DNA of 64,000 nt from Verrucomicrobiota bacterium (GCA_049523555.1 JBEKMU010000013.1:2707-66706); one strand, 5' to 3'; numbered from the stretch's first letter, positions 6,501 to 63,425 are shown. Notes: generated by a model not told the origin, from the sequence alone. Made by a program: numbers and translations.

Positions 6501-8574
6501 AGCCTACAACCTTGGAACCGTATTCAGAGTGACCACCAATGGCTTGCTGACCACCCTGGTTTCGTTCAATGGCACGAATGGGATGAAGCCCCAAGCCGCG
6601 CTGGTGCGGGGCAGCGACGGCAATTTCTATGGCGTCACGTCGTTCGGCGGACCCTACGGTGACGGAACTGTGTTCAGCGTGGCAAGCGATGGGACATTGC
6701 ACACGTTCCTCGTGTTCGCGGGCATCAATGGCTTCTGGCCCACAGCCGCGCTGGTGCAAGGCAGTGATGGCAATTTCTATGGCACGACTTTTTATGGCGG
6801 CGACGGCTACGACCCCCTGTTGGACTTTAGTGGCAATGGCATCGTCTTCCGCCTGGTGCCGCCTCCAAGCCCAAGCCCGCCGCTAATTGTCGTGCAACCT
6901 CTGAATCAGACCGCGGTGGTCGGCGACACCGCGTCCTTCTCCATCATCGCCATCGGCAGCGCAGCTTTGAGTTATTCCTGGATGCACCAAGGTGCCTTGG
7001 TTCCCGGTGCAACGAGCGCCACTTGCACGCTGACGAACGTTTCCGCGGCGGACGCGGGCAGTTACTACGCTGTCGTGACCAATGACTACGGCAGTGTCAC
7101 CAGCCGCGTAGCCACCTTAACCATAACCGCGTTGGTGGCGGCTGAACTCGGAGTTTACGGCCAGCAACTGGTGGTATTTTTTCCGACCACTACCAGAACC
7201 AATTATACGCTGCAAATCACCACCAATCCAGCTTCCGGCAATTGGGTGACGGTCACCAACGGCATTCCCTTGAGCGGCTTGGAAATTGACAGCGTCCCCG
7301 GCCCAGCCTTTTTCCGGTTTAGCCGCGGTAGGCCAAGCGTAACATGTCTTGCTGCCGGCTATTCCCACAGCCTGTTTGTGAAACACGACGGCAGTCTGTG
7401 GGCCATGGGCAACAACAGTTGCGGCCAGTTGGGCAACGGTACTTACAACAGCACCAACCTCCCCGAGGAAATTGTGGCCGACAACGTCATGGCAATGGCC
7501 GGCGGTTGGACACATAGTCTATTTGTGGAACGCGACGGCAGTTTGTGGGGTATGGGCTGCAACACTTTTGGCCAGTTGGGCAACGGCGCTTTCAGCACCG
7601 ACACCCCCGAGGAGATTGTGACCACCAACGTCACAGCCATTGCCGCCGGCGGTTTGCATACCCTGTTTATCAAGGGCGATGGCAGCCTGTGGGCCATGGG
7701 TTGGAACCAGTCTGGCCAGTTGGGTGACGGAACTTACATTAACACCAACCGTCCCGAACAAATTGTGACCAGTGATGTTATGGCCATCGCCGGCGGATAT
7801 TGTCACAGTCTTTTCCTGAAGAGTGACGGCAGCCTGTGGGCCATGGGCAACAACAGTTGCGGCCAGTTGGGTGACGGAATTTACATTAACACCAACCACC
7901 CCGAACAGATCGTGGCCAGCAATGTTATGGCCATTGCCTGCGGATATAGCCACAGCCTTTTCTTGAAGAGTGACGGCAGCCTGTGGGCCATGGGCGATAA
8001 TTCTTACGGCGAATTGGGCGACGGCTCTTACAACCGGACGAACCGGCCCGAGCAGATCGTTGCCAGCAATGTCACAGCCATTGCTGCCGGAAATGGTTTC
8101 AGTTTGTTTTCCGAGCGCGACGGCAGCCTGTGGGCCATGGGTTGGAACCAGTCTGGCCAGTTGGGTAACGGAACTTACATCAACACCAACCGCCCCGAAC
8201 AGATCATGGCCAGCAATGTTATGGCCATTGCCTGCGGATATAGCCACAGCCTTTTCCTGAAGAGTGACGGCAGCCTGTGGGCCATGGGCGATAATTCTTA
8301 CGGCGAATTGGGCGACGGCTCTTACGCCACCAACTTCCCCTACGGAATCAACCACCCCGAGGAGGTTGTGGGCATTAGTGTACCCGTGCTGGGTATTGGT
8401 ACCTGGAGCAATCAGCCGGTGGTTTTTTACCCGGTCGCCACCGCCACCAATGATTTGCTGCTGATTACGACCAATCTCACATCCGGCAATTGGGCGCCAT
8501 TCAGCACCGGCATTCCCTTCAGCATCCTGCAAATCCCCAACGTCCCCAGCCCCTTCTTTTTCCGGCTGTATTAA
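3523..8574 (+). CDS. Secreted multidomain protein: pro-kumamolisin/sedolisin (S53) peptidase + BACON/Ig-like domains + 7x Gloeo_Verruco repeats + Ig-like + 7x RCC1 repeats
   Basis: Signal peptide MKPKMLLLVMMASAG...ATAQQ. An S53 pro-domain and catalytic domain with the serine motif VGGTSCAAPLWAG (about nt 4890-4930). Two Ig I-set-like modules (PxIxVQPxNQxAVxGxTAxF...YxxVVTNxxGSVTS). Seven xGSDGNFYGTT...GTIFRMTxNGxLTTLVSFN units. Seven HSLFxKSDGSLWAMGxNxxGQLGDG units. Confidence 0.9.
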   Translation: MKPKMLLLVMMASAGTILRPPFATAQQILHGHVPEAVVRLRLQPIGRLAGTNHLSLAIGLPLRNRESLTNLLQQLYDPASTNYHHYLTPQQFTEAFGPTEQDYKAVIAFAKANNLTVATTHPNRLLLDVSGTVAEIEQALKVTLRVYQHPTEKRTFYAPDTAPSLALTVPVLHISGLDNYALPHPRLKASHIAKNNTASPNTGSGPDGCYMGNDFRAAYVPDSSLTGSGQVVGLLQFDGYTASDIIYYENLAGLPNVTLTNVLLDEFDGYPTGYGDIEVCLDIEMAISMAPDLSQVIVYEAPNGSPFEDIMNRMATDNLARQLSCSWYIPDGRPDATADQIWQEMAAQGQSFFNASGDYGAYTGLISFPGDTPYITQVGGTTLTTSGPGGVRLSETVWNRNNGIASGGGISTSYPIPDWQAGLDMTACQGSVTMRNTPDVALTADDIYVRADGQDYSVGGTSCAAPLWAGFMALVNQQVAAYGRPPAGFINPAIYALAKGSFYGACFHDITTGNNTNNSSPNLYYAVPGYDLCTGWGTPNGANLINALAPPDWLVITPSYGFTSSGNPGGPFSVNSQSLNLTNAGTNQFAWSLSNTSPWLNVSTNGGTLTPGGASATVMVSLSPAASDLPPGVYTATLWFTNLDDSIGQGRTFTLIVLGAPMIAVQPKNQVAVAGGTATFTIKVTGATPLSYTWQRNGSYIPGATNAIYTNNNAQLSDSGSQFCCMVTNAFGAITSSVASLTVFSPPWHLFSGFDGANPAGALVLGSDGNFYGTTEGGGFYGCGTIFRMTTNGELTTLVSFNNANGVFPAAGLVQGSDGNFYGTAEYGGAYSYGTIFRMTANGALTTLVSFNGTNGSIPQAVLVQGSDGNFYGTTSYGGADFNGSVQSGNGTVFRITPNGLLTTLVLFDMTNTGADPCGGLVQAGDGNFYGTTLYGTTLNGPTYGTVFRMTTNGVLTTLVTFNAPYAMDGGAPYAGLVQGNDGNLYGTTAAGGAYNLGTVFRVTTNGLLTTLVSFNGTNGMKPQAALVRGSDGNFYGVTSFGGPYGDGTVFSVASDGTLHTFLVFAGINGFWPTAALVQGSDGNFYGTTFYGGDGYDPLLDFSGNGIVFRLVPPPSPSPPLIVVQPLNQTAVVGDTASFSIIAIGSAALSYSWMHQGALVPGATSATCTLTNVSAADAGSYYAVVTNDYGSVTSRVATLTITALVAAELGVYGQQLVVFFPTTTRTNYTLQITTNPASGNWVTVTNGIPLSGLEIDSVPGPAFFRFSRGRPSVTCLAAGYSHSLFVKHDGSLWAMGNNSCGQLGNGTYNSTNLPEEIVADNVMAMAGGWTHSLFVERDGSLWGMGCNTFGQLGNGAFSTDTPEEIVTTNVTAIAAGGLHTLFIKGDGSLWAMGWNQSGQLGDGTYINTNRPEQIVTSDVMAIAGGYCHSLFLKSDGSLWAMGNNSCGQLGDGIYINTNHPEQIVASNVMAIACGYSHSLFLKSDGSLWAMGDNSYGELGDGSYNRTNRPEQIVASNVTAIAAGNGFSLFSERDGSLWAMGWNQSGQLGNGTYINTNRPEQIMASNVMAIACGYSHSLFLKSDGSLWAMGDNSYGELGDGSYATNFPYGINHPEEVVGISVPVLGIGTWSNQPVVFYPVATATNDLLLITTNLTSGNWAPFSTGIPFSILQIPNVPSPFFFRLY
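5773..6862 (+). repeat. Seven tandem Gloeo_Verruco (GloVer, choice-of-anchor type) repeats inside the giant CDS
   Basis: I counted seven occurrences of G(S/N/G)DGN(F/L)YG, each followed by G(T/I)(I/V)F(R/S). The period is about 50 aa. Confidence 0.8.
7345..8370 (+). repeat. Seven tandem RCC1-type propeller blades inside the giant CDS
   Basis: Seven DGSLW(A/G)MG...GQLG(D/N)G units with a period of about 49 aa. Some pairs are nearly identical at the DNA level. Confidence 0.85.
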
Positions 8575-12870: not shown

Positions 12871-15800
12871 ATGAGTGAAATTCCCAAGGCCTACGAACCG
12901 CAAGCAGTCGAAGACAAGTGGTACCAGTTCTGGCTCGACCAGAAGTGCTTCGTCGCCGATGCGCAGTCGAAGAAGCCTGCTTATTCCATTGTCATCCCGC
13001 CGCCGAATGTCACCGGCATGCTCACGATGGGCCACGTCCTCAACAACACCATCCAGGACATCCTCGCCCGCAAAGCGCGCATGGACGGCAAGGAGGTCCT
13101 CTGGCTGCCCGGCACCGATCACGCCGGCATTGCCACGCAGACGGTGGTGGAACGCACGTTAAAAAAGGCCGGTGAAATCAAACATCGTGACGATTTGGGC
13201 CGCGAAAAATTCCTCGAACGCGTCTGGCAATGGAAGGAAAAGCACGGCGGTATCATCATCCAGCAATTGAAGAAGCTCGGCGCGTCGTGCGACTGGACGC
13301 GTGAACGGTTCACCATGGACCCGGAATATTCGCGCTGTGTCCAGAAGGTATTTGTGGAGCTTTACAAAAAGGGCCTTATCTATCGCGGCAAGCGCATGGT
13401 GAACTGGGACCCTGCCGCCCGCACCGCGCTCTCCGACGAGGAAGTCGAAATGATCGAGGAAAAGGGGCACCTCTGGCACATCAAATATCCGCTGCTCGAC
13501 GACCAGGGCCAACCCAAGGCTGATGAATTCGTGGTCGTCGCCACGACCCGCCCGGAAACGATGCTCGGCGACGAAGCGGTGGCAGTGAATCCGTCCGACC
13601 CGCGTTACACGAAGCTGGTCGGGCGGAAGGTGCTGTTGCCGCTCCAGAACAAGCCCATCCCGGTCATTGCTGACGCACTGGTGGACCCGAAGTTCGGTAC
13701 CGGTTGCGTGAAGGTGACGCCCGCACACGATCCGGCCGACTACGAGATAGCGCTACGGCACAACCTGCCGATCACCGTCGTCATCGGCCTCGACGGCCAC
13801 ATGACGCCGGCCGCCGGCAAGGAGTTTGAGGGCTTGAACCGTTCGAAAGTGCGCCAGGCCGCAGTCGAGAAACTGACCGAGCAGGGCTTGTTGCTGAAGA
13901 CCGAGGATTACGTCCACAATGTCGGTTACAGCCAGCGCAGCCATGTGCCCATCGAACCGTATCTGAGCGAGCAATGGTTTTTGAAATATCCAAGCGTGGA
14001 AAAATCGCGGGCGTGCGTGGAGCAAGCCGACGTCGGAGGGGCGAGTTCCACGAGCCCCACTTCAAGTCAGGGCGTCGCAGAGCTCCGCCCTCCGAAAGAT
14101 GGGAAAATGCAGTTCCATCCGCAGCGCTGGGCGAAGGTCTATGACCACTGGATGGGCAACATCCAGGACTGGTGCATCAGCCGCCAGCTTTGGTGGGGAC
14201 ACCGGATTCCGGTGTGGACTCTGGCGTGGAATGACGAATGTGCCGGCGGTGCAATTGAAGAGGAAGAATTTTTGATGGGTATCAATGCATGGGTGAAGGA
14301 AGTCGGTTTAGTTGGCAAACTTGAAATTCACATCGCCCGTGATTTGCCCTATACAGCTCGCATTTTGACATTGGACTCGGAAGCGGATGCTCGTCTGGCA
14401 GAACTGGCTGAAGTCGCAAGCAAACATGATGAACAAGCTTCGTCTGAGTATGAAGCGCGCTTTACGACAGAAGCGAAGATTCTTTACACGATTGATACAC
14501 TCACCCAAGACCCCGATGTGCTCGATACGTGGTTCAGCTCCTGGCTCTGGCCGTTTGCGACGATGGGCTGGACGGGTGACAAATCCCAGGACTCCAACAA
14601 CCCAACACTCCGGGCCTTTTATCCGACCACCGACCTGGTCACCGGGCCGGACATCATTTTCTTCTGGGTCGCGCGCATGATTATGGCGGGCTACGAATTC
14701 ATGGGGGATTTGCCGTTCCGGAACGTCTATTTCACCGGCATCATCCGCGACAAGCAGGGCCGCAAGATGTCCAAGAGCCTCGGCAATTCGCCTGACCCGC
14801 TCGACCTCATCGCCAAGTTCGGCGCCGATGCGCTCCGGTTCGGCACCATGCGCAGCGCGCCGCTTGGTCAGGACATTTTGTTCGACGAACAAAACGTCGA
14901 GTTGGGCCGCAATTTCTGCAACAAGCTCTGGAACGCCTGCCGCTTCCGCCAGATGGTCGGCAGTGCCGACTTCCCAATTCAGGGGGAGATTAATCCAAAA
15001 CTATTAACGTCAGACGACAAATGGATTTTGCTCAAGCTCGATCAGGCGATTCGTGAAATGAACACCGCATTCGCCGAATACAAATTCAGCGACGCGACGG
15101 CGACGCTCTACCGCTTTTTCTGGAGCGAGTATTGCGATTGGTACGTCGAGGCGAGCAAAGCTGTGCTGTCGCACAGCGTTGAACCGTTAAAACGCGAAAC
15201 CGTTGAATCGGCCACCGGTTCAACGATTCAACCTTTCAACGATTCAACGGCTCGCAAAGCGAATACTCTGGCCGTGATTGATTTTGTTCTCTCGCATACG
15301 CTGCGGCTGTTTCATCCGTTTCTGCCGTTCATCACGGAGGAACTCTGGCATGGGATGGGTTATGCCGAGGACATGCCACAAGATCAGGGCGGCAAAACCA
15401 TCATGTTCGCGCCCTGGCCGAAGCCGCTCGGCGACGATTTCAAATCACACTACGACCTGACCGAACAGGACGAAAAACACATCGAAGCCCGCAACGAATT
15501 TGTCACGCAAGGCCGCAATCTGCGCCGCACGGCGAACATCGCCGCGAACAAGAAGGTCAAATTCATTCTCAAACCGGCGCGCGAATTGCCGGCTCACGAC
15601 CTCGAAGTGCTAAGGCTGTTGCTGAATGCCGAGGCGGTCGAGGTGAACACGAATTTTCAGCCGGCAAAAAACACGATGACGGTGCGCACCGCGTTGGGCG
15701 ATTTGTTTCTGCCGCTGGAAGGTTTGATTGACATCGAGGCGGAAAAAGCGCGGCTGAAAAAGGAGTTGGAAAAAATCGAGGCCGAGACCGCCAAAGTCGA

Positions 15801-17887: not shown

Positions 17888-18736
17888 ATGAAAGCCCTAT
17901 TATTGAATAAATCACTGGCCGTGGCCGTCAAAGCCGCGCGCGCCGCGGGGAAACTCATGCGCGACAACTGGCACGCGCCCAAGCGCGTCAACGCCACCGA
18001 TGCCCACGACATCAAGCTTGAACTCGATGTGCGCAGCCAGAAACTCATCGAAAAAAACCTGTGTGCCGCGTTTCCAAAAATTCCTTTGCTCGGCGAGGAA
18101 GGTTGCACGGGCGACATGAACGCCGAATATCGCTGGGTGGTGGACCCGATTGACGGCACGGTGAATTATTTCCTTGGCATTCCGCACGCTGCCGTATCTA
18201 TCGCTTTGCAGCGGTGGGGCGAGAGTCTCTCGAGCCCCGACTCAAAAACAAAAAAATCAGGGCTCGACAGAGTCTCGCCCCACCAAAATTTTGAAACAAT
18301 CCTCGGAGTAATCTATGGTCCGTTCACGGATGAACTCTGGACGGTGATTCGCGGCGGGCCGACGCGATTGAATGGGTGCGTCGTCCGTGTCAGCCGCCGC
18401 CAAAACCTGAAGGAGGCCGTCGTGGCCATGGGCTTTTCCAAGAGCAAACAAAACCTGGCAAAAAGCCTGCCGCACCTGAACCGGCTTTCCCGGCGCACGT
18501 TGAAAATGCGCATCATGGGTTCGGCAGCGCTCGAACTTGCCTACGTCGCCTCCGGCCGCCTCGACGCCTACATCGAGCGCACCATCAATTTGTGGGACAT
18601 CGCGGCGGGCGCATTGATGGTTGAATGTTCCGGCGGCGAATTTTACACCCGGCCCGCGCCGGGCGGGAAACTCCGGATGATCGCCAGCAACGGCCTGCTC
18701 CGCCGGAAACTTCAGCTTGGAAACTTGCTGAAGTGA
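17888..18736 (+). CDS. Inositol monophosphatase family protein (SuhB-like), with a repeat-derived internal insert
   Basis: Motifs LLGEEG and WVVDPIDGTVNYFLGIPHAAVSIAL, and a C-terminal WDIAAGALMV. Confidence 0.85.
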   Translation: MKALLLNKSLAVAVKAARAAGKLMRDNWHAPKRVNATDAHDIKLELDVRSQKLIEKNLCAAFPKIPLLGEEGCTGDMNAEYRWVVDPIDGTVNYFLGIPHAAVSIALQRWGESLSSPDSKTKKSGLDRVSPHQNFETILGVIYGPFTDELWTVIRGGPTRLNGCVVRVSRRQNLKEAVVAMGFSKSKQNLAKSLPHLNRLSRRTLKMRIMGSAALELAYVASGRLDAYIERTINLWDIAAGALMVECSGGEFYTRPAPGGKLRMIASNGLLRRKLQLGNLLK

Positions 18737-33240: not shown

Positions 33241-33296
33241 ATGGGAAATGACGCGCGTCAAACGGTTTTTTGAAAATTTTTGATGCACAAGATACC

Positions 33297-34229
33297 ATGT
33301 CCTCAACCCTGAAATCATTGCGGGCTTTGTCCGACCCGACGCGGCTGCGCATCGTGGCGCTGCTGGAGCGGGATGAATTGTCCGTGCACGAGCTGCAGGA
33401 AATCACGCGGCTCGGCCAGTCACGCATTTCCACGCATCTCGGCCTGCTGCAGGATTCGGAACTGGTACAATCGCGGCGCGACGGCAAACGGACGTTCTAC
33501 AAGCTGAACCCGGCTGCGGATGGCGCCGCGCGCGAATTCATCCAACTGGCCATTCGCGGCGCGAAGGAACTGCCCGAGCACGCAGGCGACCAGATCAATC
33601 TCAAGCGCATCCTCGGCCGCCGGCGCGAACAAGCACAGGTCTATTTCAATCAGGTTGCCGGCCGGTTCGACCGCGTTTATGGTCCCGGCCGTTCGTGGCA
33701 GGCCTTTGGGCATCTGCTGTTGCGGATTTTGCCGCCGCTGGTCGTGGCCGACCTCGGCGCGGGCGAAGGCCTGTTGAGCGAACTGCTCGCGCGCCGCTGC
33801 AAAAAAGTCATCGCCGTGGACAACTCGGAAAAGATCGTCGCCTTCGGCGCGGCGAAGGCAAAAAAGAACGGGTTGAAAAATCTGGAGTTCCGCCTCGGCG
33901 ATTTGCAGAACCCACCCATTGAAGCCGGCAGCGTTGACCTGGTGATTTTGAGCCAAGCATTGCATCACGCCGAAGCCCCGTCCGCGGCAATTGCCGCCGC
34001 AGCCAAAATCCTTCGCCCGCACGGGCAAATCATCATCCTCGATTTGCTCAAGCACAATTTTGAGAAGGCGCACGGGCTTTACGGCGACCGTTGGCCGGGC
34101 TTTGCCGAGAGCGATTTGCAGCGCTGGCTGGAGGAGGCGGGTTTCAGGAAGATCGAAATCAGTGTCGTCGCCCGCGAGGAATCGCCGCCGCATTTTCAGA
34201 CCATTCTGGCGGGCGGGGAAAAAACGTAG
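33297..34229 (+). CDS. ArsR-family wHTH fused to a class I SAM-dependent methyltransferase-like domain (SahR-like regulator)
   Basis: LSDPTRLRIVALLERDELSVHELQEITRLGQSRISTHLGLLQDSELV (ArsR HTH). VVADLGAGEGLLSELLARRCKKVIAVDNS (SAM-binding motif I). The ATG at 33297 lies inside the TTG-started ORF 33270. Confidence 0.8.
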   Translation: MSSTLKSLRALSDPTRLRIVALLERDELSVHELQEITRLGQSRISTHLGLLQDSELVQSRRDGKRTFYKLNPAADGAAREFIQLAIRGAKELPEHAGDQINLKRILGRRREQAQVYFNQVAGRFDRVYGPGRSWQAFGHLLLRILPPLVVADLGAGEGLLSELLARRCKKVIAVDNSEKIVAFGAAKAKKNGLKNLEFRLGDLQNPPIEAGSVDLVILSQALHHAEAPSAAIAAAAKILRPHGQIIILDLLKHNFEKAHGLYGDRWPGFAESDLQRWLEEAGFRKIEISVVAREESPPHFQTILAGGEKT

Positions 34230-34292
34230 GACAGGCGTCGCGCCTGTCTCCATTTTCTCCTAACGTTGAGACAGGCTGGAAGCCTGTCCTAC
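34226..34292. repeat. 67-bp REPIN-like inverted doublet (GTAGGACAGGC...GCCTGTCCTAC)
   Basis: Arms GTAGGACAGGCGTCGCGCCTGTCTC and GAGACAGGCTGGAAGCCTGTCCTAC with a 17-nt spacer. It exactly fills the convergent gap between the regulator gene and leuS. The regulator's TAG stop lies inside the terminal GTAG. Confidence 0.85.
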
Positions 34293-34295
34293 ACT

Positions 34296-37136
34296 TTACG
34301 CCACGGCGATGTTCACCAGTTTTTTCGGCACGACGATGACTTTCCTGATCGTCTTGCCGGCCAGGAACGGCTTCACTTTTTCAGAGGCGCGAGCAGCGGC
34401 TTCGAGCGCGGCATTGTCAGCGTTGGCCGGGACTTTGATGACGTCGCGCAACTTGCCGTTCACCTGCACGGGAATTTCCAGTGTGTCCTCGACGAGCAAC
34501 GTTGCATCAAACTTTGGCCAGCAGGCGTAAGCCAGCGCGATTCGATGTTGGATGTTCGATGTTGGATGTTCGATGTTCAGCTTTTCCCACAACTCCTCCG
34601 CCAAGTGCGGCGCGAAAGGCTGGAGTAGAATCAAAAAATCGCGCAGCACCACAACCGGCTTTGTTTCCCAGGTGATGGCGTCGTTTACAAAGACCATCAG
34701 CGCCGAAATAGCCGTGTTGAAACGAAAGCCGTCCAAATCCGCCGTCACCTTTTTGATGCAGGCGTGCAACGTTTTAAGCTGCTCGCGCGCCGGTTCGACA
34801 TCTTTAATCGAGCCGCTGAGTTGGATTTTTTTGAGCAGTTCTGGGCCTTTCTGCGGCTGAATTGTTTCCGCCTGCTCGAATTCCGTTTCAGATTTTTCGT
34901 CCACGAACAGCCGCCAGACGCGGCCGAGGAAACGATAAACGCCTTCGACGCCCTTGGTGCTCCACGGCTTGACCATTTCAAGCGGGCCCATGAACATTTC
35001 GTAAAGACGCAACGCATCCGTGCCGAAATCTCTCAAAACATCATCGGGGTTCACCACGTTGCCGCGCGATTTGGACATTTTCTGGCCGTCCTCGCCGAGA
35101 ATCAGTCCTTGATTGACGAGCTTGAAGAACGGTTCGGGCGTCGAGACGTAGCCGAGGTCGAACAAGACCTTGTGCCAGAACCGTGCGTAAAGCAGATGTA
35201 ATACGGCGTGCTCGGTACCGCCGACATATAAATCCACGCCTGGAGTCGTGGACTTGGAGTCTGGGGTCTGGGATTTCGGTTCTTGGGAACCCATCCAATA
35301 TTGCTCCGCCTCCTTGCCGACGAACGATTGCGCATTCTTCGCGTCGAGGTAACGCAAATAATACCAGCAACTGCCGGCCCATTGCGGCATGGTGTTCGTC
35401 TCGCGCTGTGAGCCGTCGGGCAGATTCACCCAATCCTTCGCGCGCGCGAGCGGCGGCTGGCCATCAGGAGTGGGTTTGTAATCGTCAAGCGGCGGCGGCA
35501 AGACCGGCAGCGCGCTTTCGGGCAGGGCTTCGTGATACAAATTTCCAGCGGCATCCTTTTTCCAAATAATCGGGAAAGGCTCGCCCCAGTAACGTTGCCG
35601 GCTGAACAGCCAGTCGCGGAGTTTGTAATTGATGGTTTTCTTTCCAAGGCCTCTCGATTCGAGCCAAGCGGTGATTTTCTTTTTGGCTTCGGGCGTGGGC
35701 AGGCCGGTGATGGAAATCTCCGGCCCAGTGGAATTCACCGAAGTGCCGTCGTCCACGAATCCGCGCCAATCTGTCTTCTGGTCGGGTGGCTGAACGACTT
35801 GAATAATGGGCAGGTTGAATTTGGTGGCGAACTCGAAGTCGCGCGTGTCATGTGCCGGCACGGCCATGATGGCACCGGTCCCATAGCTGGCGAGAACGTA
35901 ATCAGCAATCCAAATGGGAATTTTTTCTCCGTTGACCGGGTTGATGACGTAAGCACCGGTGAAGACGCCAGTTTTCTCTTTGGCCAACTCGGTGCGTTCG
36001 AGGTCGGACTTCTTGGCAACGTCGGTTTTATACTTGGCAATCGCGGCGCGCAGTTCCGCAGTGGTAACTTGGTCAACGAGTTTGTGTTCCGGCGCGAGCA
36101 CCATGTAAGTTGCGCCGAAGAGCGTATCGGGTCGCGTAGTAAAAACTTCGATGAAGTTTGCAACGTCTGAAAACTGAACATTTGAAACTTGAAATCTCAC
36201 TGTGGCACCTTCGCTGCGACCAATCCAGTTCCGTTGCATTTCCTTGAGCGAATTGCTCCAGTCAATCGTGTCGAGGTCGGTGAGAAGTTTCTCGGCATAG
36301 GCGGTGATGCGGAGCATCCATTGGCGCATCGGTTTGCGGGTGACGGGAAATCCGCCGACTTCACTCTTGCCGTCCACAACTTCTTCGTTGGCCAGCACGG
36401 TGCCAAGTTGCTCGCACCACCAGACGGGTTGTTCGCTGACGTAGGCGAGGCGTTTTGAGTCGCGGTAGGCGCGGCGGCGGGCTTCGAGGTCTTGTTCGTC
36501 AGTAGGGCCGACCTGCCGGTCGGCCTGGACGCGCGGCAGCGCGTCCCTACCGGAAAGTTCCGCCGGATACTTCAGCGTCTCAATCGGCTCGGCCTTGTTC
36601 GTTTCCGGATTGAACCACGAGTTGTAAAGCTTCAGGAAAATCCACTGGGTCCACTTGAAATAATCGGGGTCGGTGGTGGCGAGTTCGCGCGACCAATCGT
36701 AACTGAAGCCAAGCGATTGAATCTGGCGCTTGAACGTGGCGATGTTGGCCTCGGTGGTCTGGCGGGGGTGCAGGCCGGTCTTGACGGCATATTGCTCGGC
36801 GGGCAGGCCGAAGGCGTCCCAGCCCATCGGATGCAGGACGTTGAAGCCGAGCGCGCGCCGGTAACGGGCGAGGATGTCCGTGGCGGTGTAACCTTCCGGA
36901 TGCCCAACGTGCAAACCCGCGCCGCTAGGATACGGAAACATGTCGAGGATGTAAAATTTGGGTGGCAACTGCGTGGCGGCCACCTTGCCGGAAAGACGAT
37001 GGCGTTTGGCGAAAGGGTGCCCGTCCGGGAGGACTTCGCCCGGATTAAACGCGCGAAAGGTCTGCTGTTCGTTCCAAAATTGCTGCCACTTAGGTTCAAT
37101 CAAATGAAACGGATATTGCCTGCGGCTGCTCGACAT
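34296..37136 (-). CDS. leuS: Leucine--tRNA ligase
   Basis: [23 protein letters not shown] (HIGH region), KMSKSRGN, and the CP1 editing domain. It is 946 aa, longer than usual because of several inserts. Confidence 0.97.
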
Positions 37137-37194: not shown

Positions 37195-37953
37195 CTAATG
37201 TTTGACCGGTAAACTTCGCCAGACGAGTCGCAACCCTTCGAGCGTCAAGTTGGGTTCGACGGCTGAAATTTCCGGCAAACGTGCGGCAATTAATCCGGCG
37301 TAACCGCCCGTCGCCACCACCGGCAAATGTTTCACCTGCAATTCGCGCTTCAACTCGGCGATCAATTCACGAACCAGCCCGCGATAACCATGCACCGCGC
37401 CGACGAGCATCGCTTGTTCAGTGCTCCTGCCAATGCTCGTTTTGACTTCGCGGATTTTGATGCGCGGCAGCAACGCCGTTTTCTCGTGCAGATAATCCGT
37501 CATCGCCGCCAGCCCCGGCGCAATGATGCCCCCCGCGTAATTGCCCGCGCGATTGACGACATCAAACGTCACCGCCGTTCCGAAATCCACCACCACCACC
37601 GGCGCGCCAAAGCGCTTGCGCGCAGCCACGGCGTTTGCCAGGCGATCCTCCCCGATTGTGTCCGGCTTCGGATAATCAATGCCCACGCCGCAAAGTGTTT
37701 TTCGCGTGAGTTCGAATGCGTTCAAATTCCAAAGTCGGCGGACGGTTTTGCGGACGTGCGGTGTCGCGCGCGGCACCACGCTGCATAGCGCAGCGCCCTT
37801 CAAACTCGCGCGGCCAACAAATTTTTTCGCCAATTTCTCCGCCGCGCCCTTGAACCAGAACGATGTGGGCATGTTTGTGTGCTTCATCACACACCGGTCG
37901 TTGGCCAGACCGAGATGCGTGTTCGTGTTGCCGATGTCGAAAAGCAAAAGCAT
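37195..37953 (-). CDS. coaX: Type III pantothenate kinase
   Basis: [16 protein letters not shown] start, then [12 protein letters not shown] and ATGGYA. The ATG at 37953 lies inside ORF 37195..38043, whose 5' part is repeat-encoded. Confidence 0.9.
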
Positions 37954-38030
37954 GGAGTAATGGAGTAATGGAGTAATGGAGTGTTGGAAATCTTTTTCGG
38001 TGCCGCACCACTCCACCACTCCATCACTCC
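37952..38030. repeat. AATGGAGT-type inverted-repeat hairpin element (second copy)
   Basis: ATGGAGTAATGGAGTAATGGAGTAATGGAGTGTTGG ... CCACTCCACCACTCCATCACTCCG. It fills the birA-coaX gap. Confidence 0.8.
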
Positions 38031-39088: not shown

Positions 39089-40024
39089 TCATGTTTCAAA
39101 ATCCAAACCGATGTCCACCGCGCGCGCGGAATGTGTGAGCGCGCCGACGGAAATGAAATCCACGCCGGTCCCGGCAATCGCGCGGACATTCGCCAGATTC
39201 ACGCCGCCGCTGGCCTCGGTCTTCATGCGGCCTTTGACTTTCTGCACCGCCAGCCGCAGTTGAATCGGGTTCATGTTGTCGAGCAAAATGATGTCCGCCC
39301 ACGCATCGGCGGCCTGCTCGACCTGCTCCAGCTTGTCGGCTTCGACCTCAATTTTCAGTTTCGGAAACTTTTCGCGCGCGCGCTGGACGGCGGCGGCGAT
39401 GGCATTCGGTTTTTCACCGCGCAGCGCCGCGAGGTGATTGTCCTTGATGAGCACCATGTCGAACAGGCCGGTGCGATGGTTGTGCCCGCCACCGCACGCG
39501 ACGGCGTATTTCTCGAAACGCCGCCAGCCGGGCGTGGTTTTGCGCGTGTCCAGAATCTGCGCGTGAGTTCCTTTGATGGCTTCGACAAATTGCGCAGTAA
39601 GCGTGGCGATGCCGGAAAGCCGCTGGACGAAATTCAACGCGACACGCTCGGCGCTCAAAAGGGCGCGGGCCGGGCCGGAAATTTTCAGCAAGGTTTCATT
39701 CTCACCGACATGTTGGCCGTCATTCGCCAGCCGCTCAATTTTGATTTCCCCTTCGGAGGGCGGAGTTCCACGACGCCCTGATTCATTTTGAGATTTTGGG
39801 GGCTCGCAGCGCTCGCCCCTCCGATTGATGAATTGTAAGACTTCGCAGAACGCAGCTTCGGCGAAGGCGAGTCCGGCCACGACGAGCGGTTCGCGCGCAC
39901 GCATGAGCGCTTTGGCCGTCGCGGTTGCGGGCACGATGGATAAAGTCGTGGCGTCACCGCTGCCGATGTCCTCGGCAAGGGCCAGCTTGACGGCCTGACG
40001 GATTTCTGCGGCGGACAATTCCAC
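39089..40024 (-). CDS. nadC: Nicotinate-nucleotide diphosphorylase (carboxylating)
   Basis: AEIRQAVKLALAEDIGSGDATT, LDTRKTTPGWR and IEVEADKLEQVEQAADAWADIILLDNM. The likely GTG start at 40024 gives M-ELSAAEI. The longest ORF reaches 40144 but would overlap the divergent gene. Confidence 0.85.
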   Translation of the reverse strand: MELSAAEIRQAVKLALAEDIGSGDATTLSIVPATATAKALMRAREPLVVAGLAFAEAAFCEVLQFINRRGERCEPPKSQNESGRRGTPPSEGEIKIERLANDGQHVGENETLLKISGPARALLSAERVALNFVQRLSGIATLTAQFVEAIKGTHAQILDTRKTTPGWRRFEKYAVACGGGHNHRTGLFDMVLIKDNHLAALRGEKPNAIAAAVQRAREKFPKLKIEVEADKLEQVEQAADAWADIILLDNMNPIQLRLAVQKVKGRMKTEASGGVNLANVRAIAGTGVDFISVGALTHSARAVDIGLDFET

Positions 40025-57200: not shown

Positions 57201-57328
57201 CACGGATGAACACGGATGGACACGGATAAAATTCGTAGCAGCCGAGGTAACGAGGCTCTGACTTGCATCACGCATCACGCAACACGCATCACGGCGCAGA
57301 AAAGTTAGAGCCTCCTCACGTCGGCTGC
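57201..57328. repeat. Composite repeat block in the nuoL-nuoK spacer
   Basis: Three 10-mers CACGGATGAA/CACGGATGGA/CACGGATAAA. The inverted pair GTAGCAGCCGAGGTAACGAGGCTCT ... AGAGCCTCCTCACGTCGGCTGC. A CACGCATCA-type tandem lies between the arms. Confidence 0.8.
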
Positions 57329-57669: not shown

Positions 57670-57768
57670 TGATTGAATCGTTGAATCGTTGAACGGTTGA
57701 ACGGTTGAATCGGCGAAATTCGATGTCGCCGCGCCGGTTCAACGATTCGACGCTTTTAACGATTAAAC
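57670..57768. repeat. GTTGAATCG/GTTGAACGG-type inverted-repeat element in the nuoK-nuoJ spacer
   Basis: TTGAATCGTTGAATCGTTGAACGGTTGAACGGTTGAATCGGCG ... CGCCGGTTCAACGATTCGACGCTTTTAACGATTAAACG. Confidence 0.8.
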
Positions 57769-58295: not shown

Positions 58296-58853
58296 TCAGA
58301 CCTTCACTGGAAAATTCTCCTGCTCCTTCGCCTCATCCAGTTTGTGTTTCCACTTCTGGATGCCGCCGTGCTCACCACCGAGCCCGAGGAGCTTCTTTTT
58401 GTCATAAATCATCTCGTCACGGGACAAGCCGGTGAGCGAGTAATCTTTCAACAGGAAAATCGCCTCTTCCGGGCAGACTTCCTGGCAGTAGCCGCAGAAG
58501 ATGCAACGCAACATGTTGATTTCAAATTCAAGCGGCATTTTTTCCGCATTCGGACGGTCAGCCATTGGACCGGCCGGTCCCGGCGGAATGATTTTGATGG
58601 CCTTCGGCGGACAGACGAATTCACAAAGCTGGCAGCTTACGCACTTGGTGTTGCCGTCCTGATCGCGGACGAGATATGGCGCGCCGCGATAATCCGGCGG
58701 CACGGCCCATTTCTGCTCGGGATATTCCATCGTGACGGTCTTGCCGCCGAACAATGAGCGGATGGCGTGCCGGAACGTGACCTTGAATCCGCCGACAATC
58801 GCCGGCAGATAAAGTTGTTCCCAAAACGTCAACGGTTTGCGATTAACAATCAT
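58296..58853 (-). CDS. nuoI: NADH-quinone oxidoreductase subunit I
   Basis: Two ferredoxin motifs, CVSCQLCEFVCP and CIFCGYCQEVCP. The ATG at 58853 overlaps the nuoH stop (ATGA). Confidence 0.93.
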   Translation of the reverse strand: MIVNRKPLTFWEQLYLPAIVGGFKVTFRHAIRSLFGGKTVTMEYPEQKWAVPPDYRGAPYLVRDQDGNTKCVSCQLCEFVCPPKAIKIIPPGPAGPMADRPNAEKMPLEFEINMLRCIFCGYCQEVCPEEAIFLLKDYSLTGLSRDEMIYDKKKLLGLGGEHGGIQKWKHKLDEAKEQENFPVKV

Positions 58854-59914
58854 TTGACCCTCATCCACAGCACAACGGCCGTCACCAGAATGTTCGCGAG
58901 CGCCAGCGGCACGAACCGCCGCCAGCCCAGATCCATCAACTGGTCGTACCGGAAACGCGGCCACATCCAGCGCACCCAGATGAACAGCACCATGAACAAC
59001 AGCATCTTCACCAGGAAAATCAGGATGTGCGCGAGGCCCGCACCGAGCGTCGCCGCCGGACGGTCCAGCCCCCAGAATGGCAGCGTCCAGCCGCCGAAAA
59101 ACAGCGTCACCATCATCCCCGCCGACGCAATCATGTTGGAATATTCACCGAGGAAAAACAGCGCGAATTTCATCGAGCTGTATTCGGTGTGATAGCCGCC
59201 GACCAGTTCCTGCTCGGCTTCGGGAAAATCGAACGGCAGACGGTTTGTTTCCGCAAACGACGCAACCAAGAAAATGAGAAACGAGACCGGCGAGTAAAAC
59301 ACCAGCCAGCCGTGTTGCGCCTGCCAGCCGATGATCTGGCTCAGATTCAAATTGCCCACGATCAGCAGCACCGGAACCACCGACATGCCCATCGAAATTT
59401 CATAGGAAATCATCTGCGCGCTCGACCGGATGCCGCCGAGGAACGGATATTTCGAGTTCGCCGCGTAACCCGCCAGCACGATGCCATACACGCCCAGCGA
59501 CACGATGCCGAACGTGTAAAGGATGCCGATGTTCAAATCCGAGATGACCATTTGTTGATGGCCGAGTTGCGAACCAAACGGAATCACCGCAACGACCAAC
59601 ATCGAAGGAATCACCGCTATGGCCGGCGCGAGCCAGAAATAAATCTTTCGCACGCCCGCCGGCGTGAAATCCTCCTTGAGCATGAATTTCAAACCGTCCG
59701 CCAGCGGCTGGAAAAAACCGATGCGGGTCAGAAACGGCCCAACGACCGGAATATATTGGGCAAACGGCGGCGCCGTGCGGTTCGGCCCGACGCGGTCCTG
59801 AATCCACGCCGAAATTTTGCGCTCGGCCAGCACCGCATAGGCCACCATGCCCTGCACCACGCCGATGACCACGGCGATTTTGACTAGACTAAAGATGATG
59901 AAGTTCCAGTCCAT
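58850..59914 (-). CDS. nuoH: NADH-quinone oxidoreductase subunit H
   Basis: ERKISAWIQDRVGPNR and PFDFPEAEQELVGGYHTEYS. Confidence 0.95.
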   Translation of the reverse strand: MDWNFIIFSLVKIAVVIGVVQGMVAYAVLAERKISAWIQDRVGPNRTAPPFAQYIPVVGPFLTRIGFFQPLADGLKFMLKEDFTPAGVRKIYFWLAPAIAVIPSMLVVAVIPFGSQLGHQQMVISDLNIGILYTFGIVSLGVYGIVLAGYAANSKYPFLGGIRSSAQMISYEISMGMSVVPVLLIVGNLNLSQIIGWQAQHGWLVFYSPVSFLIFLVASFAETNRLPFDFPEAEQELVGGYHTEYSSMKFALFFLGEYSNMIASAGMMVTLFFGGWTLPFWGLDRPAATLGAGLAHILIFLVKMLLFMVLFIWVRWMWPRFRYDQLMDLGWRRFVPLALANILVTAVVLWMRVK

Positions 59915-59915
59915 T

Positions 59916-61664
59916 TTAGATTTTCACCGTCGCGCCCGTGTCACCGAGGCCCGCCCACGTCAAACCGTCGAACGCGGGCACGTCCTTCGCCATTTCGTTG
60001 AACAAACCCTCGATCGTCAGGAAACCGTCCTGGCCGGTGACGTTGTAAACCAAATCGTGCAAAAACTCCCACTCGGGCCGCGCGTCGCCGGGCGCCTCGA
60101 CCGCCTTCATGAATTTCTGAACGCGGCCTTTCGTGTTTGTGAACGTGCCGCGTTTCTCGACGTGCGCGCAGCCGGGCAAAAGGTAATGCGCCAGCTTCGT
60201 CGTTTCGTTCGGCAAAATGTCGCTAACGATGAGCGTGTCCAGTTTGCCGAGCAATTCGACGTCAATGCCGTTCTTGGTCACGTCCTCGCCGAAAACAATG
60301 AGTGTTTTGATTTTGCCGGCCCGGATGAATTCGGCGATCGGCCGCATTTTGATGCCCACGCTCGCCTGGCAAATGCCGATGAGCCGGGCACCGGTCTTGT
60401 TCGGATTGCGGTCGGCGTTCAGCAACAGCTTGTCGCCTTCGCCGAAACGTCCGACGGAATCGGTCATTGCCCCGAACTTGTCAGCCAGTTTTTTAAGCAG
60501 CCACAATTCCTCGTTCGTCTGCCGGGCCGAACCGATGATGGCGACCGAACCGTGCGCGGCCCGCTTAAGCTTCTCCGCGATTTCCGACAGTGCGGCAGTC
60601 CACGTTGTCTTTTGTAGGACAGGCATCTTGCCTGTCTCTGACTTTTCTTTAGATGGAGACAGGCTGGAAGCTTGTCCTACATTACGAATCAAGACGTCCT
60701 TCAAGCGATCTTCCCGACCGATCCACTTGTAGTTCAAGCGACCGTAATCACACATCCATGGACCGTTGACGGCGTCGTTCTCCCGGGGCGTGTAGCGGTA
60801 AACTTTTTCTTCGCGCGAGCCGATGATGATGTTGCAGCCGGTCGCGCAACTCGTGCAGATGCTCTTGGTTTCCTTGAGGAACCACACGCGCATTTGGAAA
60901 CGGAAATCCTTCGACGTGAGCGCGCCGACGGGACAAATATCCACAGTGTTCAGTGTGTAGTTGTTGTCGAATACCTTGCCCGGATAGGCGGTGAGCGTGC
61001 TGTAGCTGCCGCGATTGACGATGCCGAGCGCGTCGTCGCCCGCAATGTCCTTGGTGAACCGGATGCAGCGTGTGCAAAGGATGCAACGTTCGTCGTCGAG
61101 CACGATGCGCGGCCCGAGGTCAACCGTCTTGGGCTTGTGCACCTTCGGTTCCACAAAGCGGCTCGCGCTCTGGCCGTAATCCACCGAATATTCCTGCAGT
61201 TTGCATTCGCCCGCCTGGTCGCAAATCGGGCAATCGAGCGGATGGTTGATGAGCAGGAATTCCAGCACGCCCTCGCGCATTTGTTTCACGCCGGGTGTGT
61301 TCGTGTAAATTTCCATGCCGGGCGAAATCGGCGTGGCGCAGGCGATGGCTGGACGCGGCGATTTCATGATTTTCGGCGTGCCGTCGGGATTCAAAATCGG
61401 TTTGCGGTCCGGACCGAGCGCCGGTGTGCCGTACTCCACGAGGCACATGCGGCAATTGCCCGCTACGGGCAACTTCGAATGATAGCAATAATGCGGCACA
61501 TCCACCCTAGCCAGCTCGCACGCCTGAATCATCGTGGTGGGCGTCAACTTGCCGGACCAGTCCGCCGTGAGGCGCGGCACCTCGATTTCGCGCCCGTCCA
61601 CCTTCACCTTGATCTTTCCGACTGGTGGCGCGGGCTTCGTTTGCGTTGTGGCTGCGGTTGACAT
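59916..61664 (-). CDS. nuoG: NADH-quinone oxidoreductase subunit G (short form) carrying a repeat-derived in-frame insert
   Basis: The N-terminal 2Fe-2S/4Fe-4S motifs are CYHSKLPVAGNCRMCLV, HPLDCPICDQAGECKLQ and CILCTRCIRF. A molybdopterin-like domain follows. Confidence 0.93.
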   Translation of the reverse strand: MSTAATTQTKPAPPVGKIKVKVDGREIEVPRLTADWSGKLTPTTMIQACELARVDVPHYCYHSKLPVAGNCRMCLVEYGTPALGPDRKPILNPDGTPKIMKSPRPAIACATPISPGMEIYTNTPGVKQMREGVLEFLLINHPLDCPICDQAGECKLQEYSVDYGQSASRFVEPKVHKPKTVDLGPRIVLDDERCILCTRCIRFTKDIAGDDALGIVNRGSYSTLTAYPGKVFDNNYTLNTVDICPVGALTSKDFRFQMRVWFLKETKSICTSCATGCNIIIGSREEKVYRYTPRENDAVNGPWMCDYGRLNYKWIGREDRLKDVLIRNVGQASSLSPSKEKSETGKMPVLQKTTWTAALSEIAEKLKRAAHGSVAIIGSARQTNEELWLLKKLADKFGAMTDSVGRFGEGDKLLLNADRNPNKTGARLIGICQASVGIKMRPIAEFIRAGKIKTLIVFGEDVTKNGIDVELLGKLDTLIVSDILPNETTKLAHYLLPGCAHVEKRGTFTNTKGRVQKFMKAVEAPGDARPEWEFLHDLVYNVTGQDGFLTIEGLFNEMAKDVPAFDGLTWAGLGDTGATVKI

Positions 61665-61669
61665 GGCTA

Positions 61670-63103
61670 TCAGTGGTGCGCGGCGGCCAACTGTTTTTGT
61701 TCCGCCGGCTCGGCATTCTCCTTTGCGCGGCGCGCTTCATCGGCCGCGCCTTTGGCGACGAATTCATCCTTGAACTTCGCCACGAAACTTTGCACCGGCC
61801 ATGAGCAGGCCTCGCCGAATGCGCAAATCGTCCGACCGCCGGGAATGTTGTCGGCGATTTTCACCAGGTAATCGGCATCACTCGCGCGGCCTTCGCCATG
61901 CGTGAGACGATGGAGCGCCTTGCTCATCCAAAGCGAACCTTCGCGGCAGGGCGTGCATTGGCCGCAGCTTTCGTGCGCAAAGAACTCGCTGAGGTTGGCC
62001 AGCGCCTCCACGATGTCGGTTGAGTCATCAAGCACGATGATTGCTGCCGAACCGGACATGCTGCCCGCGGCGACGAGGCTGTCGAAATCGTAGGGCAAAT
62101 CCAGCACGTCCATATCCTGTACCGTTTCCCTGCCGTCCGGACTGCGCTTCCCAAGCTTCACTTTTTCGCCCGCCTTGAAAACCTTTGCCGATGCGCCGCC
62201 GGGGATGACGGCTTTCAACTGACGCCCGTCTCGCAACCCGCCGCCGAAGGCCGGATCGAAAATCAAATCGCGGAGCGTGACCTTGCCGGTCTCGATTTCG
62301 TAATAGCCGGGGCGCTTGACGTGGCCGCTAAGGCTGACGATGCGCGTGCCGGTGTTGTTGGGCGTACCGAGTTTGGCGAATTCCCCGCCGCCCATCGCGA
62401 CGATGTGTTTCACCGTGCAGAGCGTCTCGACATTGTTGACGATGGTCGGGCACATCCACAGGCCGAGCACCGCCGGAAAATACGGCGGCTTGATGCGCGG
62501 ATACGGCCGTTTGCCTTCGAGCGATTCGATGAGGCCGGTTTCCTCGCCGCAAATATAAGCGCCCGCGCCGCGGTGAATATAAATCTCCAGGTCGTAACCG
62601 GTGCCCAAAATGTTTTTGCCGAGGAAATGCTTCGCGCGAGCCTCGGCCAGCGTCTGGTTCAACCGCTTCGCGCCGTCGGGCATTTCGCCGCGGATGTAGA
62701 TGTAAGCCAAGTGCACATCGTTGGCGAAGCACGCGATGATGGTGCCTTCCAGCAATTGGTGCGGGTCTTTGTAAATGATCTGCCGATCCTTGAAGGTGCC
62801 TGGCTCAGACTCGTCGGCGTTGCAAATCAGGTAAATCGGCTTGCCGCTCTTGCGGTCAACGAAGCTCCACTTCAGTCCGCACGAGAAACCTGCACCACCA
62901 CGTCCGCGCAGGCCGGACGTCATCACGTCCTGACGGATTTGTTCCTGCGGCGACTGGGTTTTGCCATCGGGCAAGGTTTTCGGCTGAAGCGCGAGAGCCT
63001 TTTTCAGAACCTCATAGCCGCCGTGCCGCAAATAGCATTCGATGTCGGGCGTGTAACCCGGCTGGTCGGCGTATTTCAAAATCAATTTGTATTCCTGCGG
63101 CAT
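61670..63103 (-). CDS. nuoF: NADH-quinone oxidoreductase subunit F
   Basis: GLRGRGGAGFSCGLKW, the FMN/NADH motifs CNADESEPGTFKDR, and ESCGQCTPCREG. Confidence 0.96.
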   Translation of the reverse strand: MPQEYKLILKYADQPGYTPDIECYLRHGGYEVLKKALALQPKTLPDGKTQSPQEQIRQDVMTSGLRGRGGAGFSCGLKWSFVDRKSGKPIYLICNADESEPGTFKDRQIIYKDPHQLLEGTIIACFANDVHLAYIYIRGEMPDGAKRLNQTLAEARAKHFLGKNILGTGYDLEIYIHRGAGAYICGEETGLIESLEGKRPYPRIKPPYFPAVLGLWMCPTIVNNVETLCTVKHIVAMGGGEFAKLGTPNNTGTRIVSLSGHVKRPGYYEIETGKVTLRDLIFDPAFGGGLRDGRQLKAVIPGGASAKVFKAGEKVKLGKRSPDGRETVQDMDVLDLPYDFDSLVAAGSMSGSAAIIVLDDSTDIVEALANLSEFFAHESCGQCTPCREGSLWMSKALHRLTHGEGRASDADYLVKIADNIPGGRTICAFGEACSWPVQSFVAKFKDEFVAKGAADEARRAKENAEPAEQKQLAAAHH

Positions 63104-63110
63104 GGCTAAT

Positions 63111-63251
63111 CGCGTGATGCGTAATGCGTGATGCGTGAAAAAGTCGGGCAGGCGTCTCGCCTGCTCGCGCCGAGCGAAGCAAGGCAGGGAGATAGAAATG
63201 CCAAATGCTCGCGCTGATGCGCTCGCCGGGCAGGCGAGACGCCTGCCCTAC
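63111..63251. repeat. GTGATGCGT tandem plus 109-bp REPIN-like inverted doublet in the nuoF-nuoE spacer
   Basis: CGCGTGATGCGTAATGCGTGATGCGTGA. Then GTCGGGCAGGCGTCTCGCCTGC (63143..63164) and GGGCAGGCGAGACGCCTGCCCTAC (63228..63251). The arms are near-perfect reverse complements. Confidence 0.85.
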
Positions 63252-63304
63252 GTTGCCGGCTTGACTGGCCGATGAAACCCTTTAGCCTAGCCAACGCTCC
63301 GGCT

Positions 63305-63378
63305 TGCCCGATGGTGTAACGGTAGCACAGCAGACTCTGGATCTGTTTGTCATGGTTCAAATCCATGTCGGGCAGCCA
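63305..63378 (+). tRNA. tRNA-Gln (anticodon CTG), CCA-encoded
   Basis: I folded the cloverleaf by hand. Acceptor TGCCCGA/TCGGGCA has 7 perfect pairs. D arm is GTG-TAACGGTAG-CAC. Anticodon stem is GCAGA/TCTGT with loop CTCTGGA. Variable loop is 4 nt. T arm is CATGG-TTCAAAT-CCATG. Discriminator G is followed by CCA. U1-A72 and G73 fit Gln identity. Confidence 0.9.
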
Positions 63379-63387
63379 ACTTGCCAA

Positions 63388-63416
63388 GGCTGAAGGCTGA
63401 AGGCTGAAGGCTGAAT
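63388..63416. repeat. Heptamer tandem repeat (GGCTGAA x4)
   Basis: GGCTGAAGGCTGAAGGCTGAAGGCTGAA lies immediately downstream of the tRNA and upstream of the nuoE stop. Confidence 0.85.
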
Positions 63417-63425
63417 TGAACGTCT

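Follow-up and report, generated by a model that had tools for sequence, protein, structure and literature searches.

The nuoG gene of an uncultured Verrucomicrobiota MAG (protein match P0001) contains a 67-bp palindromic element within its coding sequence. This raises the question of how such an element came to lie in the gene of a complex I subunit and what became of it there. We analyzed the surrounding 64-kb stretch of DNA (the window), to which all positions refer, together with orthologous alleles and further genomes. The best explanation, in which we have considerable confidence, is that a GTAG-type REP doublet landed in a turn of NuoG and was kept as a tolerated in-frame loop.

The REP doublet and its copies in the window

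The gene, its neighbours and the parts of the element are located as follows.

59916..61664, minus strand: nuoG, 582 aa, with the domains Fer2_4, NADH-G_4Fe-4S_3, Fer4_Nqo3, Fer4_NDSU1 and Molybdopterin
61670-63103 and 58850-59914: the neighbouring genes nuoF and nuoH, respectively
60614..60680, minus strand: 67-bp REP doublet (REPIN), in frame in nuoG, encoding (N)VGQASSLSPSKEKSETGKMPVL(QK)
60614..60638, plus strand: left REP unit, composed of GTAG, stem GACAGGC, loop ATCTT, stem GCCTGTC and TC
60639..60655, no strand assigned: spacer of 17 nt, TGACTTTTCTTTAGATG
60656..60680, minus strand: right REP unit, inverted, with a single stem mismatch (GCTTGTC for GCCTGTC)

The element consists of GTAGGACAGGCATCTTGCCTGTCTC, the 17-nt spacer and GAGACAGGCTGGAAGCTTGTCCTAC, and its position inside the NuoG coding sequence was given correctly in the preliminary description. 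Two 25-nt GTAG-tagged hairpins of the plan GTAG-GACAGGC-5 nt-GCCTGTC are inverted around the spacer; each arm forms its own 7-bp hairpin with a 5' GTAG, and the element is therefore a REP doublet. Each unit is a short GC-rich imperfect palindrome with GTAG at one end, as is typical of GTAG-type REPs. The inverted pair can furthermore form one long hairpin, which defines a REPIN: in the minimum-free-energy structure the two arms pair end to end, with -35.9 kcal/mol for the mRNA strand (z = -7.4) and -44.2 kcal/mol for the other strand (z = -7.7). Across 18 REP units, 98.4% of the stem cells were paired and one stem pair varied by double changes (A-U 11 times, G-C five times, U-A once). The arm pattern matched four times in the window as compared to 0 expected from 100 dinucleotide shuffles, and the hairpin core matched 10 times as compared to 0.15 expected.

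Altogether, the window harbors two doublets and one variant doublet of this REP. Four more genes, namely leuS, valS, nadC and the inositol monophosphatase gene, contain in-frame palindromic inserts of other families.

34226..34292, no strand assigned: extragenic copy of the 67-bp doublet, which takes up all the space separating two convergent genes
63140..63254, no strand assigned: variant doublet of the REP family of the nuoG insert, stem GGGCAGGC/GCCTGCCC, 59-nt spacer, located in the nuoE-nuoF spacer
36502-36550, minus strand: GTAG...CTAC doublet of another REP family, GTAGGGCCGACCTGCCGGTCGGCC-TG-GACGCGCGGCAGCGCGTCCCTAC, in frame in leuS (leucyl-tRNA synthetase)
14033-14096: palindromic doublet, in frame in the Pfam-verified valS
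39752-39824: palindromic doublet, in frame in the Pfam-verified nadC, where the Pfam match is split in two around it
18213-18284: palindromic doublet, in frame in the Pfam-verified inositol monophosphatase gene, where the Pfam match is likewise split in two

The extragenic copy had been described as matching the nuoG element in length, spacer length and arms, except for 1 nt in the right arms and the loop of the left arms. Both are indeed 67 bp long and have 17 nt between the arms; the right arms are 1 nt apart (T/C), and the left arms differ in the 5-nt loop only (ATCTT vs GTCGC). The GTAG of the extragenic copy provides the TAG stop of an ORF at 33270-34229 (plus strand), and the end of leuS (34296-37136, minus strand) lies 4 nt past the copy. 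The doublets in valS, nadC and the phosphatase gene belong to the TCGGAGGGGCGAG.. and GGTGGGGCGAGAG.. families; the valS insert is missing from valS of another Verrucomicrobia MAG (L043). A search of the 64 kb of the window yielded no RAYT gene.

Other repeats were observed in the window as well. The nuoE-nuoF spacer (63104-63425) is a 320-nt gap in the nuo operon with a tRNA-Gln(CTG) on the opposite strand at 63305-63378; it contains the heptamer arrays CCTTCAG just past nuoE and CACGCAT (four times) directly 5' of the nuoF start codon. Intergenic tandem arrays of 7-8 nt occur, for example, at 57268-57293, 57671-57714 and 37932-37995. Long in-frame tandem repeats with periods of 147-150 nt (..GSDGNFYGTT..) at 5772-8565 suggest a large repeat protein and are unrelated to the nuoG insert.

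Alleles at the nuoG site

The insert corresponds to NuoG residues ~328-350. The best 120 NuoG proteins, with identities of 80-100%, were found to be length-polymorphic exactly at the insert point; the closest orthologues compared were 80-92% identical. The segment was wholly absent from 14 of these closest proteins, as the proposed insertion implies; these empty alleles read DVLVRG-QKTTW and comprise 560-561 aa. Another 30 proteins have an unrelated 5-residue loop, and 75 carry REP-derived inserts. Most frequent among the latter is type A, the doublet of the window (..VGQASSLSPSKEKSETG[KRA][MT]PVL.., 51 proteins), followed by type B, a shorter-spacer doublet with the second REP in another frame (..VGQASSLSPSNSGQAGSLTHSK.., 22 proteins); a single REP was found once and a composite insert twice.

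A set of 80 orthologous metagenome loci derived by tblastn was compared at the DNA level. The empty site reads GTT CGC GGA CAA AAA ACC (…GTTCGCGGACAAAAAACC…) and DVLVRGQK is kept down to ~73% protein identity; the empty state is therefore ancestral. The window reads CGT AAT GTA GGA CAA GCT..CCT GTC CTA CAA AAG, which is a net difference of +66 nt or 22 codons as compared to the empty site. Hence the insertion described previously holds as an in-frame gain of 22 codons, but it is not a clean split, as one Gly codon was replaced. The single-REP allele (L200) reads CGC AAC GCAGGACAGGCTTCCAGCCTGTCTCAC TCT, and a composite allele (L201) contains a doublet of another family, GTGGCACGGGCGTCCCGCCCGT..ACGGGCGAGGACGCCCGTGCCAC, beside a decayed type-B REP. 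Thus, orthologous sites differ in the presence and absence of the element, as required for mobility, with empty, single-REP, doublet and composite alleles at one nuoG codon. REP-derived inserts at this site were found in more than 70 independently assembled proteins and in 12 DNA loci besides the window. Of the 80 loci, 79 have one frame throughout the site; L165 gave no match to the anchor pattern. Net insert lengths range from 27 to 90 nt, and all alleles seen are in frame and stop-free.

Heptamer repeats, similar to the intergenic tandem arrays of the window, were also observed in frame at the NuoG turn of many orthologues, with the units AAGTCCA, GTGCGGA, AGGGCAG, GGAGGAC and GTTCACA (e.g. 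L146, L169, L130, L159, L175 and L173). Four copies of AAGTCCA are read as SPKSKVQSPK and five of GTGCGGA as KCGVRSAECGVR; L173 has a 71-residue region at the site, 56 residues more than the empty allele.

A protein NJ tree was too poorly resolved and was replaced by a codon-aligned nucleotide NJ tree with bootstraps. Filled alleles occupied at least five separate positions beside empty or other alleles, and the clades containing them had 97-100% bootstrap support. Four empty alleles joined the window and L119 in a clade of 97%, and the sequence nearest to the window was that of the empty L123 (88.3% nucleotide identity). L126 grouped with L127 (100%) and L154 with L157 (99%); L133 was placed within a 100% clade of empty alleles; L171, which has a heptamer-type loop, shared a 100% clade with L134 and L136. 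The junctions vary among alleles (VR[NDK]V-GQ, VLV-GQ, VLA-GQ, VTV-GQ), as do spacer length, the frame of the second REP and the loop subfamily (KM/RM vs AT).

These differences bear on a single ancient insertion kept by selection, either as a useful loop or as an mRNA or DNA hairpin, with the empty alleles as secondary losses or recombinants. Common descent would account for the type-A spacers, which share 13-16 of 17 nt across distant clades, as compared to 7 of 17 shared with the window's own extragenic copy. It would likewise fit the identity of the REPIN among distant nuoG alleles, which amounts to 82-96% and is far above that of the flanking four-fold sites (55-69%), and the strong enrichment at the site: no other copy of the REP was found in 618 kb of nuoG-flanking DNA from 79 related loci. 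However, all empty alleles share VRGQK with distant relatives, and its regeneration from a filled allele would take two separate deletions. The filled alleles differ in junctions, spacers, frames and loop subfamilies, and one has a different REP family; the flanks of the window and L134 are no more similar near the insert than elsewhere. Moreover, the spacer type of the window (tgactttt..agatg) recurs in intragenic copies within unrelated genes of other genomes (L036, L041, L056 and L100), so the shared spacer is no proof of shared descent. We therefore regard a single ancient insertion as unlikely.

We conclude from the comparison of alleles that the site probably underwent several independent gains or replacements and is highly permissive and possibly preferred. 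The REPIN identity being far above the four-fold identity, the insert is not evolving as a free neutral loop; either it is young in each lineage, or it is homogenized against other copies, or it is constrained at the DNA or RNA level. Since the 618 kb of flanks are free of the REP, retention or targeting at the nuoG site is far stronger than a random-hit model predicts. The greater likeness of type-A spacers to one another than to the window's extragenic copy likewise speaks against purely random hits. A more far-reaching idea, which we put forward tentatively and consider rather doubtful at present, is that the NuoG turn is a true recurrent hot spot. A "coding-competent" REPIN subfamily, i.e. 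a TCTC/GAGA-extended doublet with the tgactttt..agatg spacer, stop-free in one frame, would have colonized it in many independent events within Verrucomicrobiota, and this subfamily would persist in essential genes and exchange with the genomic REPIN pool.

With respect to targeting, no common target sequence was found at the junctions, and microhomology was the sole recurring feature: GGACAA of the empty nuoG overlaps with GGACAG at the start of the REP.

The encoded loop and its place in NuoG

On the coding strand the insert is read as NVGQASSLSPSKEKSETGKMPVLQK, of which the element itself encodes NVGQASSLSPSKEKSETGKMPVL; the tryptic peptides NVGQASSLSPSK and MPVLQK are predicted from it. 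Identity of the flanking nuoG sequence between the window and L119 was 0.94/0.96/0.71 at codon positions 1/2/3. Therefore, nuoG is under purifying selection and functional, and the insert has to be readable. Apparently, the segment is an in-frame coding insert: it is stop-free, adds a net multiple of three, lies in a gene under purifying selection and is absent from orthologues. A Pfam search with the ORF 59916-61664 returned NuoG domains only. From the conservation of the frame we infer that the insert is translated as part of NuoG.

The location of the insert was examined using solved complex I structures. Alignments of the insert-bearing query with 75-kDa/Nqo3 chains mostly stopped at ~328, and a PDB search with an insert-bearing fragment aligned only downstream of the insert, whereas the empty allele crosses the site. 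Its sequence rlkdvlvrgqk....ttwtaalneia aligns through RLNTPLVKGAKglenATWSAAFDAI (7arc_G) and RLSDPMIRDsdgrfKAVSWRDALAVV (7ar7_G), the solved subunits having only 4-5 extra residues at this point. As the empty allele aligns straight through and the structures add 4-5 residues, the site is a turn of variable length. This turn is preceded by the strand RLxxPh(V/I)(R/K) and followed by the helix (T/S)Wxx(A/a)(L/F), with which the molybdopterin-like domain begins. This agrees with the preliminary description, which had placed the insert between an R-L-x-x-P-L-I-R segment and a W-x-x-A-L helix. An AlphaFold2 model based on 76 close homologues was poor (mean pLDDT 50.7) and was used for the local pattern only, which comprised a strand at 324-327, a low-confidence stretch at 329-348, a strand at 350-353 and a helix at 355-367.

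Removal of the segment from RNA or protein as an intron- or intein-like intervening sequence is very improbable. Nothing direct speaks for it; the strong hairpin is the sole feature in its favor. With 67 nt or 22 aa, the segment falls far short of the size of inteins and group I/II introns, and neither splicing domains nor a catalytic RNA fold were found. No intron family of Rfam matched; two microRNA-precursor families matched over the insert with 25.9 and 24.1 bits, as compared to gathering thresholds of 68 and 58 bits, respectively, and these are chance hairpin matches. Furthermore, the frame is kept without stops in every allele seen despite the variable insert length, which is expected only if the insert is translated. 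A native NuoG loop with chance likeness to a repeat, or an assembly artefact, has a negligible probability and is refuted by the near-identical extragenic copy in the window, the closest orthologues without the segment, the REP-derived inserts at orthologous sites and the REP in at least 118 stretches of public genomes.

In the explanation that we prefer, namely a REP doublet tolerated in a turn, the element would be a non-autonomous mobile GTAG-tagged REP in the form of a tail-to-tail doublet (REPIN), presumably mobilized in this lineage as a single-stranded hairpin by a RAYT (HUH/Y1) transposase. One copy would have landed in the turn that links the strand ...DVLVR to the helix TWTAAL... and would have been kept as a 22-residue hydrophilic loop. 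Being stop-free on the nuoG strand with a net length of 66 nt, a multiple of three, the element left the gene open. The complementary strand has a TAG in the spacer in the same codon register, so that the reverse orientation at the same position is not viable in the gene. Most likely, the loop is neutral or nearly so. As the site is permissive and variable in length, it accommodates different inserts by lineage, i.e. different REP architectures, a second REP family and heptamer repeats. Repeat-derived peptides such as GQASSLS, ETGKMPVL and DRQDACPT, which occur in proteins of Verrucomicrobiota, Planctomycetota and Acidobacteriota, are not to be annotated as motifs.

The REP family in other genomes and in known systems

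Species-representative genomes were scanned with GTAGGACAGGC-N5-GCCTGTC. The at least 118 stretches containing the REP core frequently had plus/minus pairs a few to ~100 nt apart among the matches listed, which belong to Verrucomicrobiota, Acidobacteriota, Planctomycetota, Cyanobacteria, Chloroflexota, Nitrospirota and others. That isolates and MAGs from seven or more phyla (L001-L118) share the 18 specified REP bases is unusual, as REPs are usually lineage-specific; MAG labels such as Bifidobacteriaceae and Akkermansia among the matches may reflect mis-binning.

Two matches linked the REP to a RAYT. A Y1_Tnp protein (Pfam PF01797, E=2.8e-7) of Cylindrospermum sp. NIES-4074 (L008), 177 aa long and with an HUH motif, has the REP on both sides (GACAGGCGAGACGCCTGTC units). 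The sources of its homologues call these "REP element-mobilizing transposase RayT"; nearly all of them are cyanobacterial and thus not informative on the lineage of the window. The RAYT of the Verrucomicrobia MAG L043 is flanked by doublets including GTAGGACAGGCGTCCCGCCTGTC; it matched the RAYT profile with E=4e-31 and Pfam Y1_Tnp with 22.0 bits, below the cutoff of 23. The claim of a mobile palindrome in a complex I subunit is supported by copies elsewhere, by presence/absence polymorphism and by the RAYT association in other genomes, with the correction that each arm is a REP hairpin of its own. Taken together, these comparisons provide good support for a REP doublet that would be mobilized by a RAYT and is tolerated in a variable turn.

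Two observations concern the RAYT genes themselves. At L008:3930-3960 the RAYT gene holds an in-frame REP-like unit, GAACAGGCGAGACGCCTGTTCTAC, read as ..VNRRDACSTEY... At L043:97-2340 (Bin_73_16, VFJO01000280.1) a complete RAYT (IMPNHVH) lies in the open frame of valS, between HRIPVWY and DVLDTWFSS. It contains no stop codon and no evident start codon of its own, and thus resembles a transposase gene carried in frame by the essential valS; if the NuoG turn is indeed a recurrent hot spot, this would be the extreme case.

Of 183 REP matches within the retrieved loci, 68 fall in open frames of 200 aa or more. Ten genes with an in-frame REP were verified by Pfam: purM, an ABC ATPase, an N6-methylase, glnS/gltX, dnaE, a class-III aminotransferase, mfd, an alpha-2-macroglobulin, a regulator propeller protein and a DUF5107/TPR protein. 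The doublet of the aminotransferase (L113:952-2661) begins exactly at the conserved TGFGRTG motif, right after GRTG, where the codons resemble the REP head. Together with GGACAA of nuoG, this hints at microhomology at the insertion points.

GTAG-tagged REPs are known as a superfamily that is present across phyla including Verrucomicrobia (Di Nocera, De Gregorio, Rocco 2013, BMC Genomics 14:522, PMC3733652). They are mostly extragenic, lie between convergent genes and often supply a TAG stop with their termini, and a subset is located wholly within ORFs; intragenic dimers encoding 20-30 residues have been catalogued and are most abundant in the verrucomicrobium Opitutus terrae (PMC3733652). The window element shares the 5' GTAG, the 7-bp GC-rich stem and the inverted dimers with the REPs as described there, and the copy at 34226, between convergent genes and with its GTAG as TAG stop, occupies their typical setting. 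That paper distinguishes 24 families, to which the GACAGGC-stem family may belong. Its table does not name nuoG; Oter_0480, a "ferredoxin" of 628 aa with a REP at residues 331-338, may be nuoG with the insert at the same site. A protein search for an Opitutus-type NuoG with the published REP peptide (local NuoG plus VGPALAAG) gave only short frameshifted NuoG fragments, and a text search on Oter_0480 gave no match.

REPINs and RAYT transposases have been described previously (Bertels and Rainey 2011; Nunvar et al. 2010; both as cited in PMC3733652). The nuoG element resembles REPINs in that an inverted REP pair forms one long hairpin and in that the REP flanks a Y1/HUH RAYT in L008 and L043. 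The loops of the two REPs in the nuoG doublet are not complementary, which makes it a heterodimer; furthermore, its core spans many phyla, in contrast to classical REPINs with their lineage specificity. Rickettsia palindromic elements (RPEs; Ogata et al. 2000, via PMC10969869 and PMC3733652) are likewise described as palindromes in frame in housekeeping genes that are absent from orthologues and encode a tolerated peptide. RPEs of the RPE-1 type comprise ~100-150 bp and belong to other families, and by these published descriptions of length and tag the nuoG element is set apart from them. The short rickettsial intragenic RPE-4 and RPE-6 are regarded as CGTC-tagged REPs without a dedicated transposase (PMC3733652).

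Intragenic GTAG REP dimers and in-frame RPEs having been described already, the former for Verrucomicrobia in particular, the nuoG case adds an example to a known phenomenon; in this respect the preliminary interpretation, otherwise supported, is corrected. Population-level polymorphism and repeated hits at one codon are not described in PMC3733652. What goes beyond earlier reports appears to be the fine-scale polymorphism that a complex I subunit shows at a single codon, the presence of at least two REP families and heptamer repeats at one turn, and the density of five genes with in-frame inserts per 64 kb. The nuoG site represents a clean natural experiment, at the scale of populations, on the incorporation of a selfish DNA hairpin into a conserved respiratory enzyme. 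Its dozens of related empty, single, double and composite alleles allow asking about REPIN targeting as opposed to selective filtering, about the rate of turnover and about the tolerance of complex I.
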